A stretch of DNA of 32,000 bases from Desulfatiglans anilini DSM 4660 (GCF_000422285.1 NZ_AULM01000011.1:76425-108424), one strand, 5' to 3'. Shown: positions 24,836 through 32,000, numbered from the stretch's first letter. The notes: generated by a model from the sequence alone, not told the origin. Made by a program: numbers and translations.

Positions 24836-25110
24836 TCCATCCGGAAATGGTCTTTTGGCCCAATCTCTGCGTCAATCTTTGCGCTTGCTTGTGCGCCGGC
24901 CACCAGGTCGCCCCCGCGCAACCGCTTGATTTCTTCGATCTTGGCCAGACCGGGACCCGCCCCGCAGGGGTGGGACTGAGCACGCGCAGCGTGTGAAGAA
25001 ACCGGGAACCCGCAGCGCGGCGGTGGGATCGAGCAGCCGAAGGGTGTGAAGAAAAATCCTCATTTACCGATTGGAGACCGGGTTCCACCGGGAAATCATC
25101 TTTGAATGGA
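24836..25110 (-). repeat. MITE-like modular repeat, copy B (inverted relative to A and C, module 2 duplicated)
   Basis: The + strand starts TCCATCCGGAAATGGT and matches the reverse complement of copy C over its whole length. About four in five positions match by eye in the first 100 nt. An internal tandem duplication spans 24949-25000 and 25001-25053. Confidence 0.8.
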
Positions 25111-25213: not shown

Positions 25214-25253
25214 GGTGTAGGAAATCAAGACAAGGTGTGTAGGAAAAGACAAC
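25214..25253 (+). promoter_or_regulatory. Tandem 2 x 20-bp direct repeat, candidate upstream activator site
   Basis: GGTGTAGGAAATCAAGACAA followed by GGTGTGTAGGAAAAGACAAC, about 210-240 bp upstream of the sigma54 promoter. The 20-bp period would place both units on the same helix face. Confidence 0.35.
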
Positions 25254-25456
25254 ATAGTGGCTTAAAGCAGGAAATACCGGGTTCGCCTCTTTGGGCAGCA
25301 GCGGATTATAGGTATGGTACTAGGCTGCACTGTTGTATTTCACGCCAACCTAGTCCTCTTCGATGGAGGCAGGATCTGGCCGCCCTTCTTTTCCTTTGGA
25401 TAAAAAATTTAATATGATCAGTATGATATGTCGTATTTTCTCCATTTGATCCGGTT

Positions 25457-25472
25457 TGGCACGCAGGTTGCT
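25457..25472 (+). promoter_or_regulatory. Sigma54 (RpoN) -24/-12 promoter
   Basis: TGGCAC gcagg TTGCT matches the TGGCAC-N5-TTGCW consensus exactly. It lies about 55 nt upstream of the ATG at 25527. An AT-rich tract (25400-25440) lies upstream, where a bending site would be expected. Confidence 0.72.
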
Positions 25473-25526: not shown

Positions 25527-26525
25527 ATGGCTAGCAAAGATGCAGAAAATCGGAGAGCGACGGTGGGGTACGGTTCGACCTATCGCAGGGGCCGTAGCCA
25601 GGACCCCGCGGATAACGCCTCGCTGAAGGCGGTTTTGAACGGACAGCTCTGGATGGTCAAGCCGGACAAGCAGGCCCAGGCGGCCAATCCGTGCATCTGG
25701 ATGCAGGCGGGCGTGGTCGATTTCAAGAACTGCAACAACTTCTACGATTGTACGACCTGCAAGTATGATGGGGGTATGAAGAAAAAGGTCGAGAAGGGGG
25801 CCGCGACCGGTTGGCGGGATGCGATGCGGCGGAGGCCCGGCCTGGAGCGGGTCTGCCGCCACACCTTGACGAACCGGATCGAGGAGCGGGTCTGCGCCTA
25901 CGATTACGCCTGTCACAAGTGTGACTTCGACCAGTTTTTCGAGGACGTGTGGGCCCCGAAAACGGCGTCCCGGCCGGACGAGATGCACGATGTCAAAGGC
26001 TTTGCTGTCCCGACGGGCTATTATTTCAACGACGGCCACTCATGGGCCCGGATCGAAAGCGGCGGGTACATCCGGATCGGCATGGACGACTTCGCTCTCA
26101 AGCTGTTTGGCAGGGCCGATGCGTATGAACTGCCGGTTATCGGGAAAGAGTTGTCTCAGGGCAAACCTGGATGGGGTTTCAAACGATCGGCGCAGGAGGC
26201 CGAGGCCCTTTCGCCGGTGAACGGGGTTATCGTCGAGGTCAACGGCGATCTGCGTGAAAAGCCGGCGATGGCGAATGCCGGGCCTTATGAGGCCGGATGG
26301 ATGATGCTCGTGAGGACACCCGATATCAAGGGAACACTGGCGAATCTGATGACCGACGCCGACAGTATCGGATGGCTGAACCAGGAGGTGAGGCAGCTGG
26401 AAGGCATGATCGAGGAGGTGGCCGGACCTCTGGCGGCAGACGGTGGTACACTGGGTGAGGACATCTATGGGAATCTGCCGGGTCTTGATTGGGGCAACCT
26501 CCGGCGTGCGTTTCTCAAAAGCTGA
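25527..26525 (+). CDS. GcvH-fold protein lacking the lipoyl-lysine, with two N-terminal C-X12-C-X5-C-X2-C modules
   Basis: 332 aa, with SD AAAGGAG. The Cys modules are at Cys56/69/75/78 and Cys110/123/129/132. The C-terminal half, YYFNDGHSWARIE...IRIGMDDFA...LSPVNGVIVEVNGDL...PYEAGWMM, is collinear with glycine cleavage H protein. Confidence 0.78.
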   Translation: MASKDAENRRATVGYGSTYRRGRSQDPADNASLKAVLNGQLWMVKPDKQAQAANPCIWMQAGVVDFKNCNNFYDCTTCKYDGGMKKKVEKGAATGWRDAMRRRPGLERVCRHTLTNRIEERVCAYDYACHKCDFDQFFEDVWAPKTASRPDEMHDVKGFAVPTGYYFNDGHSWARIESGGYIRIGMDDFALKLFGRADAYELPVIGKELSQGKPGWGFKRSAQEAEALSPVNGVIVEVNGDLREKPAMANAGPYEAGWMMLVRTPDIKGTLANLMTDADSIGWLNQEVRQLEGMIEEVAGPLAADGGTLGEDIYGNLPGLDWGNLRRAFLKS

Positions 26526-26832
26526 TCGCGAAGCGGAGCACCCTGCTGGGAGCCCGCCACGCAGCGAGTCCTTTTTCGTAGTCAAGCGCGATGCAGCCGG
26601 GCAGGCCGGGCCCGGCTCCAAGGTCTCATGCTGAGGGTGGATGCGGCGAAAGACTGAAACCGGCCGGCATAAACGACCGGTCCGAAAACGAGGTTTTGCG
26701 GCGGAAATCAGCGGAATCAAGCCGTCGGGCGCATCCTGACGCCCGATCATCTTAGAGGCGGGAATTGCAGGGAAGCAGAAGAAAACCGGGAAAGCCCGCT
26801 TGCCGGGGCAACCGGATCCAGGGAGAGATGCT

Positions 26833-27552
26833 ATGGAAAAAGAGAGGGAGACCGGAAACCGACTGGATGCGCGCCGTCCATGCAAGAGGCATGTGGAAGG
26901 ATACATCGGATACCGACCCTGCACCCATGATTACCGCTGCGATGATTGCGAGTTCGAGCAGTTTTTCCTGGATCACTACCGGGTTCATGCGGTGGTTCAG
27001 CCCGTTGATACGATCAAGATCCGGGGGTTCGATGTGCCGCAGGGGTATTATTTTCACGCGGGCCACACGTGGGCGAAGGTCGAGGGAGACCAGACGGTGC
27101 GTATCGGGCTGGATGATTTCGCCTTCAAGACGCTCGGCCCCTTCGACCGCCTCGATGTGCCGTTGATTGGAAAGGAGATCCATCAGGATCGTCCAGCCGT
27201 AACGGTTTATCGGGATGAACACCGCTCGGCCGTCCGTTCGCCGCTGAGCGGTATTGTGACCGCTGTCAACCAGGAGCTTCTCGAGGATGCGCGTGCGGCG
27301 TTCGACCATCCCTATGCCGACGGATGGCTTCTGACAGCCCATGCTACGGCGCTCAGGAGCGATCTGAAACAGCTCATGATCGATCAAGAGACGAAAGCGT
27401 TTATGCGGAAAGAGGTCGACGAGCTGTTCGGTCTGATCGAGGAGACCCTGGGGCCTATGCCGAACGATGGAGGCGATATCCGGGGCGACCTGTACGGAGA
27501 AGCTCCGGAGATTGGCTGGGACAGGTTGAGCCGCCTGGTTTTCAAGACGTGA
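26833..27552 (+). CDS. GcvH-fold protein lacking the lipoyl-lysine, with one N-terminal C-X12-C-X5-C-X2-C module (paralogue)
   Basis: 239 aa from the ATG at 26833, after SD AGGGAGAG. The track ORF starts at a TTG at 26800. The Cys module is at Cys17/30/36/39, followed by YYFHAGHTWAKVE...VRIGLDDFA...RSPLSGIVTAVNQEL...PYADGWLL. Confidence 0.78.
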   Translation: MEKERETGNRLDARRPCKRHVEGYIGYRPCTHDYRCDDCEFEQFFLDHYRVHAVVQPVDTIKIRGFDVPQGYYFHAGHTWAKVEGDQTVRIGLDDFAFKTLGPFDRLDVPLIGKEIHQDRPAVTVYRDEHRSAVRSPLSGIVTAVNQELLEDARAAFDHPYADGWLLTAHATALRSDLKQLMIDQETKAFMRKEVDELFGLIEETLGPMPNDGGDIRGDLYGEAPEIGWDRLSRLVFKT

Positions 27553-27637: not shown

Positions 27638-28207
27638 TCAAGGCGTTTCTTCCGCCATCCTGTCCAGTTCGTCTTGGAGGAGAACCCTGCAATATCGGCA
27701 GAATGCCTGGGATTTGCGGTCGACATGCTCGATTTTGCGGCAATAGTGCATGATGCAGCGGGTTTCAGGGCAATGCTTGAGATTGAAGGTGTGGCCGAGT
27801 TCGTGGACGGCCTCCTTCATGAGGCGGCAGCGGAGTCGTTCAGGATCGCCTCCGGCAGAGATCCCCTCGTTCAGCCGGTGGGTCGAGACGATGCAGGCCC
27901 TGCCACCCAGTTGAGCTTCGCCGTAAACGTGGGTGAGGATCGGAATGTACAGGTCGCGGTCGGTGACGGCCAGGATCTTCAAGGCATCGGGCGGGGCGAG
28001 TTCAGCAAGCCGGGTGAGGATCGCCGTCGAATGGTATTGATCCCTTTGCGTGTTGTAAGCGAAATCGATGCTGTCCAAGAGGGGCATGGCGACTGTCGGA
28101 TAGCCGAAAAGACGACTGATTTCGAGGCCGACGGATTCGAGATAGGATTCCTGGCCGTCGCTAATGGAAGTCAGGACGATGATGGATGATGCCTTTCCTG
28201 GTTTCAA
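27638..28207 (-). CDS. Archaemetzincin-type zinc metallopeptidase (peptidase M54)
   Basis: It has HELGHTFNLKHCPETRCIMHYC...CRYC, matching the HEXXHXXGX3CX4CXM...CXXC signature with G replaced by N. The upstream region DRDLYIPILTHVYGEAQLGG is typical of AMZ proteins. The proposed TTG start at 28207 overlaps the activator stop as TTGA and follows AGGAAGAAGGA. The track ORF to 28297 would overlap the activator by 94 nt. Confidence 0.78.
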   Translation of the reverse strand: MKPGKASSIIVLTSISDGQESYLESVGLEISRLFGYPTVAMPLLDSIDFAYNTQRDQYHSTAILTRLAELAPPDALKILAVTDRDLYIPILTHVYGEAQLGGRACIVSTHRLNEGISAGGDPERLRCRLMKEAVHELGHTFNLKHCPETRCIMHYCRKIEHVDRKSQAFCRYCRVLLQDELDRMAEETP

Positions 28208-29550
28208 TCCTTCTTCCTGATTCCGTAGCGCTTCATTTTGCTGTAAAGGGTCGACCGGTCGATGCCCAATGTCTCCGCGCACTTGGATATATTCCACTGG
28301 TGTTGTTCAAGGATTTTAACGATGTGGGCCTTCTCGAGTTCTTTCAGGGACTGATCGGCGGGCTCGAGGGTCATCTGGTCCGGGCTGAAGATCGGCAGAT
28401 GTTCAGGCAGGATGGTCGGGCCTTTGGCAACGACGACCGCCCGTTCGACGGCGTTTTCCAGTTCCCGGATATTGCCCGGCCATTCATAGAGCATCATCTC
28501 GTCCAGGGCGTCACGGCTGATCCGTTCGACCGGTTTGTTCGTCTCCTGCGCGAAACGGTGCAGGAAATGCGCGGCAAGCAGAGGGATGTCCTCTTTACGT
28601 TCCCTGAGGGGCGGCATCTCGAACGTAAACACGTTCAAGCGGTAGTAGAGATCCTCCCGGAAGCTCCTTTCGCGGATCGCCTGCTCCAGGTTGCGGTTGG
28701 TGGCTGCAATGACGCGGAAATCCACCTCGAGCGGCTGGGTGCTTCCGAGGCGGTAAAAGACATGATCCTCGAGGATCCGCAGTAGATCGATCTGCATCCG
28801 CATGCTGATCTCGCCGATCTCATCGAGAAAAAGGGTGCCGCCGTGGGCCAGTTCGAATCGTCCCTTCTTGGTCTCTTTGGCATCGGTGAAGGCCCCTTTC
28901 TGATAGCCGAACAACTCGCTTTCGAGAAGCTGTTCCGGAAAGGCGCCGCAGTTGATCGAGACGAAGGGCCCGGCGCAGCGGCGGCTGAGGGTGTGGACGG
29001 CCTTTGCGGCGAGGCCCTTGCCCGTGCCGGTTTCACCCCGGATCAGGACGGTCGAGTCGGTCGGGGCGACATCGCGGATCAGCTCGAAGACCTTCTGCAT
29101 GGCCTTTGACTGGCCGATCATGCTTTCGAAGCGGGTCCTTTCGCGCACTTCCTGTCGGAGATACTGGTTTTCGAGTGCCTGCAGCTGCTGTTTTTCGATC
29201 CGCTCGATCAGGATTCCGAGTTCGTCCGGATCGAACGGTTTCATCAGGTAGTCGGTGGCGCCGTGCTTCATGGCTTCGACCGCCGTGTTGACCGAACCGT
29301 ACGCCGTGATCATGATGACGGCGATGTCAGGATCGTTCTCCTTGACAGCCTTCAGGACGTCCAGACCGCTCATGCCCCCCATCTTGATGTCCAGCAGAAT
29401 GATATCGAAGCGGGATTCTTCGATCATCGCCAGGGCCTCTTCGCCGCTCGAAGCGGTCTTCAGTTGATGCCCGTCTCTTTCAAGCCAGCCTGCCAGAGAT
29501 TCCCTTACGATGAGTTCATCATCGACGATCAGGATCTTGCTGCCGCCCAT
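28204..29550 (-). CDS. Sigma54-dependent response regulator (REC - AAA+ - Fis-type HTH; NtrC family)
   Basis: REC domain: KILIVDDE...[17 protein letters not shown]+ domain: [31 protein letters not shown]: [25 protein letters not shown]. The ATG at 29550 follows AAGGAGG with 5-nt spacing. The track start at 29580 is a TTG extension. Confidence 0.92.
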
Positions 29551-29791: not shown

Positions 29792-29915
29792 TCCATCCGG
29801 AAGTGAGAATGTTTCTTCGCAGTGGGCCCCGGGTTTTTCCGTATCAAGCATACGAGGCGTTTGTTCGTGCGGCGACCCGGAGGTCGGCTTCGTGCAAATG
29901 AGCATTCCGTACGCC
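29792..29915 (-). repeat. MITE-like repeat, copy D (degenerate, module 3 plus terminus) between the kinase and activator genes
   Basis: The + strand starts TCCATCCGGAAGTGAG, the same terminus as copy B. The core GTGCGGCGACCCGGAGGTCGGC...GCAAATGAGCATTCC is collinear with module 3 of copies B and C but carries indels. Confidence 0.55.
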
Positions 29916-30016: not shown

Positions 30017-31567
30017 TCAGGCGCCCTGGCTCGCCTCCCGATTCACCGGGAGTTTGACGAGAAAGGTCGTGCCCTTGTCCGGCTCCGACTGAACCTCGAT
30101 GGTCCCGCCATGGTTTTCGATGATGCCGTAGGCCACTGAAAGACCCAATCCGACGCCCTTCCCTTTAGTCTTGGTGGTGAAGAAGGGTTCGAACAGGCGC
30201 GGGAGGTTTTCTTTGGGGATGCCGGGGCCGTTGTCCTCGAATGTAATGAAGACCTGGCCGGCTTCTTTGACGTCGCCGGTCCTGATCGTCAGCGTGCCGC
30301 CGGGCATTGCCTCCATGGCCTCGGCGGCGTTGGAAATGAGGTTCATAAAGATCTGCTGGAGGTGATCCTCCGAGCCCATGACCTCGGGAAGCCCGGGATC
30401 GAGGTCGGTAACGACGCTCACATTGTGTATCTTGAGGAGATTCGAGTTCAGGAACAAGGTCTTCTGCACCAGCCGGTTGAGATCGACGAGTTTCAATTCA
30501 ATTTTCGACTGTCTGGAGAACGTGAGCAGGTTGGAGACGATCCTGCTGATCCGCCGGGTTTCCGTCTCCATGAGGTCCAGGTAGCGGGCGAATTTCTGCA
30601 GGTCCTCGGTTGTCAGGCGCCCCTCCTGGCTGATGCGTTTCATGAGCAGGATCAGGTTGAGAATGCCGGCTATGGGATTGTTGATTTCGTGGACGACGGA
30701 AGCGGACAGCTTTCCCAAGGAGGCCATTTTGTCCTGATGAAGGAGTTTGGCGTGCGTTTCTTCAAGGGCTTTCGTCCGCTCCTCGACCATCCTCTCCAGG
30801 CGCTGGGTGATGCGCTCTTCCTCGCGTTTCCGGTCGGTGATGTCGCGGCTGACTTCGATGAATTTCGATATTCGGCCGTTGTCCTCGAAGATGGGGAACA
30901 TGGTGACTTCGGTATAAATGGGCTGTCCGTCGCTGTCGATACGCGTTACGACCTGCTGTGAAGGCTCCCTGTTCCTGATGGCCTCGTTCATGGGGCAGAA
31001 GATGATGCCTTCGTTGCAGGGCTGGTTGCCTTTCTGGAAGACCTCATGGCAGGAGTGTCCGACGACCTGCTCGCGGGTGTAGCCCATTTTGGTCAGGAAG
31101 GCCTCGTTCACCTCCACGATCTTTCTGTCCGGGGTGATGACGAGAATAAAGTCCTGAATTCCGTTGAGGATGGTTTCCATATCGAGGCTGCGGTCACGCC
31201 ATTTGGCTTCCTCAAGCCGGGTGGCCGCCCAGAACATCATAAAGACCGCGCGGGTCATGATGCGGATGTGATCGGGGCTGTGTTTGAGGACGTCGTCGGT
31301 GACTTTTTCGTCCCGGCAAAGGACCAGAATCAGGTGGATATCGAGGGATGGGTCGTAAAGCGCATGGTAATCTTCGAGGACGCTGAGCCCGATGGATTTC
31401 GCGAAGAGGACTGCCGGGCTCTCCGGGTCGGGGTCGACGACGGCGACATACCGGGCCTTGACATCCTCCTGGGAATAGGAACTGGTGGTCTTTTCGAGGA
31501 CCTCGCGGGCCAGTTTTCCGCCGCCGACAATCCCGATATTCAGCAGCGAAGGCGGGTGTTCGACCAT
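30017..31567 (-). CDS. Cytoplasmic sensor histidine kinase (Rossmann-like N-domain - Cys-rich PAS - HisKA - HATPase_c)
   Basis: 516 aa with no hydrophobic segment. N-terminus: NIGIVGGGKLAREVLE. PAS domain contains HSCHEVFQKGNQPCNEGIIFCPMNEA. H-box: SVVHEINNPIAGI. N box: NLISNAAEAM. G boxes: DNGPGI and GKGVGLGLS. Confidence 0.9.
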   Translation of the reverse strand: MVEHPPSLLNIGIVGGGKLAREVLEKTTSSYSQEDVKARYVAVVDPDPESPAVLFAKSIGLSVLEDYHALYDPSLDIHLILVLCRDEKVTDDVLKHSPDHIRIMTRAVFMMFWAATRLEEAKWRDRSLDMETILNGIQDFILVITPDRKIVEVNEAFLTKMGYTREQVVGHSCHEVFQKGNQPCNEGIIFCPMNEAIRNREPSQQVVTRIDSDGQPIYTEVTMFPIFEDNGRISKFIEVSRDITDRKREEERITQRLERMVEERTKALEETHAKLLHQDKMASLGKLSASVVHEINNPIAGILNLILLMKRISQEGRLTTEDLQKFARYLDLMETETRRISRIVSNLLTFSRQSKIELKLVDLNRLVQKTLFLNSNLLKIHNVSVVTDLDPGLPEVMGSEDHLQQIFMNLISNAAEAMEAMPGGTLTIRTGDVKEAGQVFITFEDNGPGIPKENLPRLFEPFFTTKTKGKGVGLGLSVAYGIIENHGGTIEVQSEPDKGTTFLVKLPVNREASQGA

Positions 31568-31776: not shown

Positions 31777-32000
31777 TCCATCCGGGAATGATTTCCCGGA
31801 AAAACCCGGTTTCCAACCCGGAAATGAGGATTTTCTCGCCACACCCTTCAGGTGCTCAGTCCCAACGCTTTGGCGTGAGGCTGGTCCCGGTTTTTTTCAA
31901 TATCAAGGAAATCAAGCGTTTGCGCGGAGGCGACCTGCAGGTCGCCGCACAAGCAAACGTGCAGATTGACGCCGAGATTGGCCAAAAAGACCATTTCCGG
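31777..32000 (+). repeat. MITE-like modular repeat, copy C (near-complete, right terminus cut by the window edge)
   Basis: It starts TCCATCCGGGAATGAT and contains the palindrome TCCGGGAA-tgat-TTCCCGGA at 31781-31800. Modules 1, 2 and 3 are present once each. The window ends in ...GACCATTTCCGG, which is the inverted copy of the left terminus. Confidence 0.8.

Follow-up and report, generated by a model that had tools for sequence, protein, structure and literature searches.

The lysine that is modified in a lipoyl domain has to occupy the very tip of the hairpin. Proteins with the GcvH fold also occur outside glycine cleavage, an example being GcvH-L, a stand-alone protein of Streptococcus pyogenes (PDB 5a35). 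Genes for Hdr-like sulfur oxidation have been described as "inevitably associated" with the GcvH-like LbpA, which retains its lysine and is lipoylated; dedicated lipoate ligases and sulfur transferases accompany it (PMC6067878). Here we describe a tandem pair of GcvH-like genes, open reading frame (ORF) A and ORF B, of Desulfatiglans anilini DSM 4660; the window that was analyzed is a stretch of 32,000 nucleotides (nt) (GCF_000422285.1 NZ_AULM01000011.1:76425-108424), with positions counted from its first letter. The cytoplasmic products of A and B consist of a Cys4 domain (four cysteines with the spacing C-X12-C-X5-C-X2-C, in one or two copies), a GcvH-type β-barrel without the lipoyl lysine, and a 55-residue helical tail. 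The parts are of known kinds; the Cys4 domain and the combination are new, and no description of a Cys4–GcvH-like family was found in the literature on GcvH-like proteins, archaemetzincins, sigma-54 and Desulfobacterales. A and B share with LbpA the GcvH fold outside glycine cleavage; LbpA is tied genomically to Hdr-type iron–sulfur (Fe-S) flavoprotein complexes, and Hdr/Nfn/MvhD genes recur next to genes of the A/B type. A and B differ from LbpA in lacking the lysine, in carrying Cys4 modules, in occurring in anaerobic sulfate reducers and their relatives, and in being linked to Hdr genes at part of their loci; no lipoate ligase or sulfur-transferase neighbors were seen at the A/B loci.

In the PspF–PspA and ZraSR–ZraP systems, the activator gene lies by a sigma-54 promoter whose first product is a small non-enzymatic protein, in a self-contained circuit. 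The A-B pair likewise stands first behind a sigma-54 promoter in a self-contained local circuit, although it has no sequence or fold kinship with PspA or ZraP, its gene set adds a histidine kinase and an archaemetzincin, and feedback would here be hypothetical. Archaemetzincins (M54) have no known physiological substrate or partner (PMC3427221, PMC4681839). The explanation that best covers the whole, and that we put forward tentatively, is that A and B would act as a metal-thiolate regulatory or sensor adaptor within a sigma-54 circuit, and not as lipoyl carriers.

The GcvH-type barrel and the Cys4 modules of A and B

Both proteins pass the cut-off of Pfam GCV_H (A 67.4 and B 65.2 bits against 22.2) and reach about half the cut-offs of the NCBIfam gcvH models TIGR00527 and NF002270 (63.7-69.7 bits against 115.85 and 117). 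An AlphaFold2 model of A, built from a 141-sequence alignment (predicted score in the local distance difference test (pLDDT) 82, predicted template modeling score (pTM) 0.65), was compared with the PDB using Foldseek. It matched most solved H-proteins, that of E. coli included, with a target-normalized template modeling (TM) score of 0.81-0.92 (0.73 for 3mxu) and a root mean square deviation mostly of 1.3-2.9 Å, and there was no significant match beyond H-proteins; the S. pyogenes GcvH-L, likewise a GcvH fold with a non-glycine-cleavage function, was matched at E = 1e-5. The motifs (G)H.W, LP.(I/V)G and SP(V/I).G of the GcvH fold are kept. In a HMMER alignment to the GcvH of Mycobacterium tuberculosis (3ift), the lipoyl-lysine column holds Ala in A (krsAqea) and Glu in B (yrdEhrs), and across the family it holds D/E/H/G in A-type and S/A/G/T/E in B-type proteins, with Lys never predominant; Arg220 is nearly invariant (138/141 sequences). 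An earlier sequence-only reading of this DNA, which had assigned the GcvH fold and placed the same two residues at the lipoyl position by hand alignment, is thus borne out, as is its view that neither protein is a canonical lipoyl carrier. Its description of the proteins as lysine-less stands for the canonical column and needs one correction, since 37/64 A orthologs have a Lys one residue ahead of that column (position 221; Ser221 in the A of the window). A Lys also occurs at position 219 in 50/64 A orthologs, and the B-type hairpin has no conserved Lys.

Compared with GcvH (PF01597), A and B have 100-160 extra N-terminal residues that contain the Cys4 modules, a 55-residue C-terminal tail, and predicted sigma-54 control. 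Genes for gcvT, gcvP and lipoate ligase are absent from the 32-kb window, and no gcvT/gcvP or lipoylation genes (including lipoate/octanoyl transferase and ligase) were found among the conserved neighbors at ~160 loci. Judged by residue, profile and genomic context, A and B are not glycine-cleavage H-proteins, and we read the pattern of the lipoyl column as loss of the swinging arm across the whole family, beyond this genome alone. Scores were also far below the cut-offs of NCBIfam NF045810, the "GcvH-related protein" of Desulfovibrio type (16.7 and 22.1 bits against 150), and TIGR03077, "not_gcvH" (36.2 and 32.2 bits against 144); A and B therefore belong to neither family, and none of the proteins represented by 5a35, TIGR03077 and NF045810 has been described with Cys4 modules.

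The spacing C-X12-C-X5-C-X2-C occurs twice in A and once in B (Table 1), which are the sole three instances in a six-frame translation of the window. All eight Cys of A and all four of B fall within these modules, and when the residues of A and B were shuffled, at least one instance of the motif arose in just 2/20,000 trials. The two proteins share 37% identity over 246 residues (E = 6e-60). In A the alignment covers residues 88-332, so that B has neither the N-terminal extension nor the first Cys module of A (the first 87 residues). The tails CDFDQFF and CEFEQFF occur at module 2 of A and at the module of B, respectively. The positions of the two ORFs, three motif instances, the acidic/aromatic C(D/E)F(D/E)QFF tail and tandem paralogy, all noted in the sequence-only reading, were each recovered. 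That reading had also counted one module in the 239-residue protein; the count is right, but the architecture is not typical, since the B-type norm is ~308 amino acids (aa) and two modules, as in A. The nearest relatives of B are called at 239-243 aa, and on this comparison the one-module B is a lineage variant, restricted to the nearest relatives of the window. An intact remnant of the missing first module of B was sought in the A-B spacer, and no ORF for one was found there. The spacer itself (26526-26832; 307 nt) is GC-rich, with a predicted minimum free energy of -118 kcal/mol, calculated without a shuffle control.

An hhalign comparison shows homology, in register, between modules 1 and 2 (probability 96.8%, E = 2e-10), and 216/237 family proteins contain exactly two motifs with the exact spacing; the Cys motif is therefore not due to chance. 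In the 141-sequence alignment of A and B types, the Cys of module 2 are all invariant and those of module 1 are at least 90% conserved. The 55-residue C-terminal extension is also strongly conserved (...GPLAADGG.L..DIYGNLP..W..L...FL). No Pfam or NCBIfam model matches the Cys module. The best Pfam match, the CHY zinc finger (zf-CHY, PF05495), likewise has four Cys per unit and is locally similar over 17 residues, but scores 13.9-17.8 bits against a cut-off of 31.3; Zn_ribbon models gave E ≥ 0.05. A model of the double module alone (pLDDT 83, pTM 0.70), in which the C-X2-C sits at the start of a helix, had zero Foldseek matches in the PDB. The Fe-S motif of FNR and Wbl proteins is C-X2-C-X5-C, also within units of four Cys, whereas the order of the spacings in A and B is reversed.

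A double-module profile, searched against 1.84 billion representative proteins, returned 530 proteins at E ≤ 1e-3, of which 141 had E ≤ 1e-10. The best 150 matches comprise 43 with GCV_H, nine response regulators of the form REC(-TPR)-module, in which the module is C-terminal, and one histidine kinase of the form TPR-module-HisKA-HATPase, in which it belongs to the N-terminal part; many others are fragments. From these profile and model comparisons, the Cys module is a real, repeated, undescribed domain, in agreement with the earlier view of the architecture as novel-looking, and a metal (Zn or Fe-S) or redox site within it is plausible. Among individual proteins, P0264 has two double-module units, and thus four modules, ahead of the GcvH barrel. 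P0259 (296 aa), which joins an A-type N-terminus with two modules to a glycosyltransferase, is a probable assembly chimera and was set aside as evidence.

Family spread, predicted sigma-54 control and conserved neighbors

A has 1,170 homologs at E ≤ 1e-5. The top 120 are 62-79% identical to it and nearly all 329-333 aa in length, and most of them are labeled "glycine cleavage system protein H"; across Desulfobacterales and Desulfatiglandaceae, orthologs of ~332 aa show 62-72% identity. A also has 99% identity with a protein annotated as "conserved hypothetical protein" on chromosome LR026961.1, from an uncultured Desulfatiglans sp. The label misleads metabolic reconstructions of glycine cleavage and the reductive glycine pathway in sulfate reducers, and the mislabeled genes occur in hundreds of Desulfobacterota genomes and many metagenomic contigs. 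A scan of GTDB, with one genome per species, gave at least 562 encoding stretches. The best 80, which were used here, derive from Desulfobacteraceae, Desulfobacterales, Desulfatiglandaceae and other Thermodesulfobacteriota, with Desulfonema limicola, Desulfobacterium sp. N47 and an Olavius symbiont among the carriers. These 80 and two metagenome contigs make up branch 1 (82 distinct loci); branch 2 comprises 80 metagenome loci of a distant subfamily. The locus sets are the best 80 matches per scan and are phylogenetically related, and the ORF clustering used for the neighbor counts can under-count neighbors.

The promoter ahead of A matches the exact sigma-54 consensus TGGCAC-N5-TTGCW and is the single such match in 32 kb, where 0.01 would be expected. 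In branch 1, the exact promoter lies 55-104 nt before the ATG of A in 75/82 loci and is nearly always the sole such site in ~20 kb; in most branch-2 loci, an exact sigma-54 promoter stands directly ahead of the GcvH-like gene. Upstream of the promoter is a putative enhancer, a palindrome TGTWG-N7-CWACA, of which the window has a single copy at ≤1 mismatch, site 1. The same palindrome at ≤1 mismatch is present in 56/71 related upstream regions (1.5 expected in shuffles), with two positional peaks in relatives at about -210 and -117 from the -24 element. Enhancer site 2 of the window may correspond, weakly, to the second of these peaks (bins -111 to -130), near which it lies. The 307-nt A-B spacer contains no second sigma-54 promoter, and A-B is therefore probably one transcription unit; as far as promoter motifs indicate, this operon is the sole recognizable sigma-54 transcription unit of the locus, with predicted dependence on RpoN and the activator. 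Rfam detected no known RNA family anywhere in the window.

On the far side of A-B in the window lie convergent genes for an archaemetzincin, an NtrC-type activator (a sigma-54 enhancer-binding protein) and a sensor histidine kinase. The archaemetzincin matches Pfam Peptidase_M54 and exceeds the NCBIfam archmetzin cut-off (150.1 bits against 145); it carries HELGH and a Cys4 zinc motif, C-X4-C...C-X2-C (HELGHTFNLKHCPETRCIM...CRYC). It thus resembles archaemetzincins in general, and differs from them in being a fixed member of a bacterial sigma-54 module that also contains a GcvH-like protein. No obvious membrane segment was seen in the kinase, the N-terminus of which has a Rossmann-type NIGIVGGGK (a weak GFO_IDH_MocA match), and its PAS domain contains three Cys (SCHEVF...C...C); the Rossmann motif and the PAS Cys may point to NAD(P)H or redox sensing. 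A defense system was considered and rejected: PADLOC had no matches for A, M54 or the kinase and one insignificant match for B (E 0.004), and its strong matches, to RtcR/PspF-type models, come only from the generic AAA+ domain of the activator.

In branch 1, B is directly downstream of A in 70/70 loci with enough sequence, and among the 51 loci with at least 4 kb of flank, M54 follows downstream in 39 and an orthologous activator (~70% identical) in 38. The branch-2 protein has an extra N-terminal Cys4 motif (MKCPFLE..C...C...C, as in P0312, P0326 and relatives) ahead of its two modules, after which come the GcvH barrel and the DGG tail seen in branch 1. Most branch-2 loci contain a single GcvH-like gene, and tandem paralogy is therefore a branch-1 trait. 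The activator is present at 58/80 branch-2 loci, 51 of which also have M54 and 48 the kinase, in at least eight gene orders; for example kinase–activator–M54–GcvH-like gene, kinase (reverse)–M54–activator–GcvH-like gene, or GcvH-like gene–M54 (reverse)–activator (reverse)–kinase (reverse). HExxH is kept in 99/99 neighboring M54 copies, and GAFT(G/D)A in nearly all activators, the sigma-54-contact loop reading GAFTDA in 40/46 branch-1 and GAFTGA in 55/58 branch-2 copies. Because the linkage holds independently of gene order in two distant branches, there is strong evidence that kinase, sigma-54 activator, archaemetzincin and Cys4–GcvH-like protein form a functional unit, and the variety of gene orders argues against plain synteny. 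In one sub-clade, a SpoIIE-type phosphatase and pspA/pspC follow the A-B pair (L003, 10733-13449), with the archaemetzincin displaced ~8 kb downstream; it is likewise displaced by 3-9 kb in L013, L019, L031, L038, L083 and L084.

The REC-module proteins form a large family of ~355 aa, on contigs named Dehalococcoidia and Planctomycetota, among others. The gene order was kinase, sigma-54 activator, REC-module gene in 8/8 contexts, with a gap of 119-217 nt before the REC-module gene and, in all eight, a -24/-12 element (0-2 mismatches, GG-N10-GC always kept) 42-73 nt before its ATG. What follows differs: three HtrA-type proteases (L085, L088, L174); CCG/HdrB, a 1,121-1,124-aa HdrA/NfnB fusion and FlpD (L089, L173); NuoE/F-like genes (L086); or nothing obvious (L087, L172). 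Since these downstream genes vary by locus, the module protein is what stays constant in the circuits and the effectors are what changes. M54 was found in none of the eight loci; thus, M54 tracks the GcvH-like part, whereas the Cys module tracks the sigma-54 circuit. Taken over all three architectures (GcvH-like, response regulator and kinase), the module protein appears to be the constant first product of sigma-54 circuits, and the module probably acts on the input side in a kinase and on the output side in response regulators. A short RpoN-like gene stands in front in five of the eight contexts (L086, L087, L089, L172, L173; Dehalococcoidia-type contigs), ~1-2.6 kb upstream of the kinase and coding for 343-387 aa with Sigma54_DBD only; several kinases of these contigs have a [FeFe]-hydrogenase-like sensory domain. 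The sequence-only reading was incomplete here rather than wrong: its testable parts all held, and it missed the sigma-54 promoter, the enhancer, the kinase, the activator and the archaemetzincin, together with the presence of the module in response regulators and in a histidine kinase as well, a distribution that points to signaling over catalysis.

Redox genes recur near the unit. An NfnB/GltD-HdrA fusion of 1,300-1,476 aa adjoins it, on either side, in 33/82 branch-1 loci, and is found just past the kinase in the genome of the window itself; an FlpD/MvhD gene in 14 and an MTHFR gene in 19 loci also belong to the branch-1 neighborhood. In branch 2, HdrC-HdrB-HdrA/NfnB-MvhD lie downstream on the same strand in 10/53 loci, some Hdr-type gene is present in 18/79, and NuoL/Mrp-like genes are downstream in six. 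On these counts, the link between Hdr/Nfn/MvhD genes and the A-B unit is real but partial, at ~20-40% of loci, and when the Hdr/Nfn gene in the genome of the window was checked for a preceding sigma-54 promoter or enhancer site, none was found. The fusion just beyond the end of the window (L170, 16700-20999) and that of L001 (14113-16990) were each called by two pipelines as a 59-aa FAD-binding fragment and a ~1,400-aa ORF, whereas NCBI annotates the fusion in L002, a copy of the L001 contig, as a single protein of 1,476 aa. The break has the look of an in-frame UGA, and the fusion may therefore be a selenocysteine-containing HdrA.

Possible roles of the A-B pair

In the proposed adaptor role, the kinase would sense a cytoplasmic, probably redox-related signal and phosphorylate the activator, which would bind TGTWG-N7-CWACA and open the sigma-54 promoter, leading to production of A and B. 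The pair would then serve as the regulatory or sensor adaptor of the circuit and not as an enzyme cofactor carrier. Each Cys4 domain would hold a metal center (Zn or Fe-S) as the signaling and partner-binding element, and the GcvH barrel would have taken on a new use, as a scaffold for docking or ligand binding, with the invariant Arg in place of the swinging arm. A and B could act back on the kinase or the activator, in the way that PspA acts on PspF, or could link the circuit with Hdr/Nfn-type redox complexes; a PspA–PspF-style feedback onto the activator would be the simplest concrete version. The co-encoded archaemetzincin would set the level or state of A/B by proteolysis. We favor a regulatory or sensor-adaptor role because the module protein is constant while the effectors are variable, and because the module is found as the input domain of a kinase and the output domain of response regulators. 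Several points weigh against it. The pair could be nothing more than the system's physiological effector; 12/51 branch-1 loci with at least 4 kb downstream have no M54 or activator in the fetched DNA; the counts are not independent events, because the loci of each set are related by descent; and the Hdr genes downstream in 10/53 of the distant loci fit a redox-partner role equally well.

That role is the main rival, and we consider it rather unlikely: A/B would be a redox partner or substrate of an Hdr/Nfn/MvhD-type electron-bifurcating complex, with the barrel docking on an HdrB-like subunit, as has been proposed for lipoylated LbpA in the sulfur-oxidizing sHdr system, and the Cys4 modules replacing lipoamide in the redox-active or electron-carrying function. 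The NfnB/GltD-HdrA fusion beside the unit in branch 1 and in the genome of the window, the recurrent FlpD/MvhD and MTHFR genes, the same-strand Hdr genes of branch 2, and the HdrB/HdrA/FlpD genes that follow two of the REC-module genes all fit this role, for which the LbpA encoded with Hdr-like sulfur-oxidation genes is a precedent (PMC6067878). However, the partial Hdr association contrasts with a near-universal association with kinase, activator and M54, and some adjacency is to be expected because Desulfobacterota genomes hold many Hdr paralogs. Moreover, the Hdr-like gene in the genome of the window is not preceded by a sigma-54 promoter or enhancer, and the presence of the same Cys domain in response regulators and a kinase would be unusual for a substrate or carrier domain. 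An improbable further option is that A/B is a stress effector, as a redox-switched zinc-thiolate chaperone or a metal buffer (cf. Hsp33, or ZraP under ZraSR), which the sigma-54 system would induce and which would act with the archaemetzincin in protein quality control. Sigma-54 two-component regulons often govern such effectors, family proteins normally have eight Cys in two Cys4 sites, and a protease is co-encoded (M54 in 39/51 branch-1 and 51/58 branch-2 loci); HtrA-type proteases follow the REC-module gene in three contexts, and psp genes adjoin the pair in L003. Yet the strict spacing, the conserved non-Cys residues, the barrel and the tail argue for a specific partner over bulk buffering; the Cys domain as a kinase input domain is an ill fit to a chaperone, and no chaperone-like domain was found in A or B by Pfam or NCBIfam.

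It is very improbable that A and B are still acyl or lipoyl carriers by way of a neighboring lysine, Lys219 or, in most orthologs, Lys221. The frequency of these residues beside the canonical column in A orthologs is what suggests it, whereas the exact placement that lipoylation demands, the Ser221 and Ala222 of the window's A, the B-type hairpin, and the lack of lipoate/octanoyl transferase or ligase genes in the window and among conserved neighbors all speak against it. The idea that A and B are decaying gcvH duplicates, with a Cys pattern due to chance or low complexity, could appeal to the module that B is short of relative to the family and to the plain GcvH label used by databases; it is effectively refuted by conservation, given well-conserved orthologs of constant length in hundreds of species, invariant Cys, the rarity of the motif in shuffles, and a conserved promoter and neighbors.

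The Cys4 unit ties GcvH-like, response-regulator and histidine-kinase architectures to sigma-54 circuits, and is therefore a tractable new signaling element of strict anaerobes. With a fixed set of genomic partners, the biological role of an archaemetzincin becomes testable, and the recurrent proximity of Hdr/Nfn/MvhD genes suggests a route into the regulation of flavin-based electron-bifurcating complexes in anaerobes. A bolder proposal, which we think distinctly unlikely, is that the double C-X12-C-X5-C-X2-C unit, whether joined to REC, to a histidine kinase or to a lysine-less GcvH barrel, would be a new metal/redox-sensing domain dedicated to the sigma-54 enhancer-binding-protein circuits of anaerobes, and that its GcvH form would constitute, with the archaemetzincin, a feedback or anti-activator loop gated by proteolysis, through which the expression or activity of electron-bifurcating complexes of the Hdr/Nfn/MvhD type would be tuned. 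If true, such a loop would provide the first physiological role for archaemetzincins.

Features of the locus and the rest of the window

Table 1. Features of the A-B locus in the 32,000-nt window.
Feature	Position	Strand	Description
Enhancer (upstream activator) site 1	25238-25254	+	TGTAGGAAAAGACAACA; exact copy of palindrome TGTWG-N7-CWACA
Candidate degenerate enhancer site 2	25331-25347	+	TGTTGTATTTCACGCCA; 2 mismatches; 126 nt before -24 element
Sigma-54 (-24/-12) promoter	25457-25472	+	TGGCACGCAGGTTGCT; 70 nt before ATG of A
ORF A	25527-26525	+	332 aa: N-terminal extension, two Cys4 modules, lysine-less GcvH barrel, conserved C-terminal helical tail
A, Cys4 module 1	25692-25760	+	Cys56, 69, 75, 78
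A, Cys4 module 2	25854-25922	+	Cys110, 123, 129, 132, then DFDQFF
A, GcvH-type barrel	26022-26360	+	Residues 166-278; hairpin FKRSAQEAEALSPVNG, lipoyl column Ala222, Arg220
A, conserved C-terminal extension	26361-26522	+	Long helix, GPLAADGG loop, ...W..L...FL end
ORF B	26833-27552	+	ATG start, 239 aa; alternative TTG start at 26800; paralog of A
B, single Cys4 module	26881-26949	+	Motif start Cys17
B, lysine-less GcvH barrel	27049-27411	+	Lipoyl column Glu; C-terminal tail as in A
Archaemetzincin-family (M54) metalloprotease	27638-28207	-	189-aa call; convergent with A-B
NtrC-type response regulator / sigma-54 enhancer-binding protein	28204-29550	-	REC, AAA+, HTH_8; GAFTDA loop
Sensor histidine kinase, cytoplasmic	30017-31567	-	Rossmann-like GxGxxG N-terminus, Cys-containing PAS, HisKA, HATPase_c

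A composite inverted repeat (24841-25110 and 31777-32000) brackets the whole five-gene unit, its right arm running off the window; the arms comprise stretches of 103, 58 and 30 nt that are 84%, 79% and 80% complementary, respectively. The spacer between activator and kinase contains a partial third copy (29858-29898), and there is a 50-nt tandem direct repeat at 24952-25054. The bracketing repeat could be a dispersed extragenic repeat of the genome or the ends of a mobile unit.

Near the start of the window, ORFs at 250-1134 (+, 294 aa) and 1759-2988 (+, 409 aa) have no Pfam match at E ≤ 1e-5; opposite-strand ORFs overlap them, and their coding frame is provisional. Between 4015 and 24406 lies a cluster for anaerobic catabolism of aromatic compounds, unrelated to the A-B finding, that encodes aldehyde:ferredoxin oxidoreductase, PEP-utilizing/PPDK-like synthase subunits, a molybdopterin hydroxylase with its FAD subunit, UbiD- and UbiX-type proteins, CoA ligases, two UPF0261 paralogs, and a LysR regulator.

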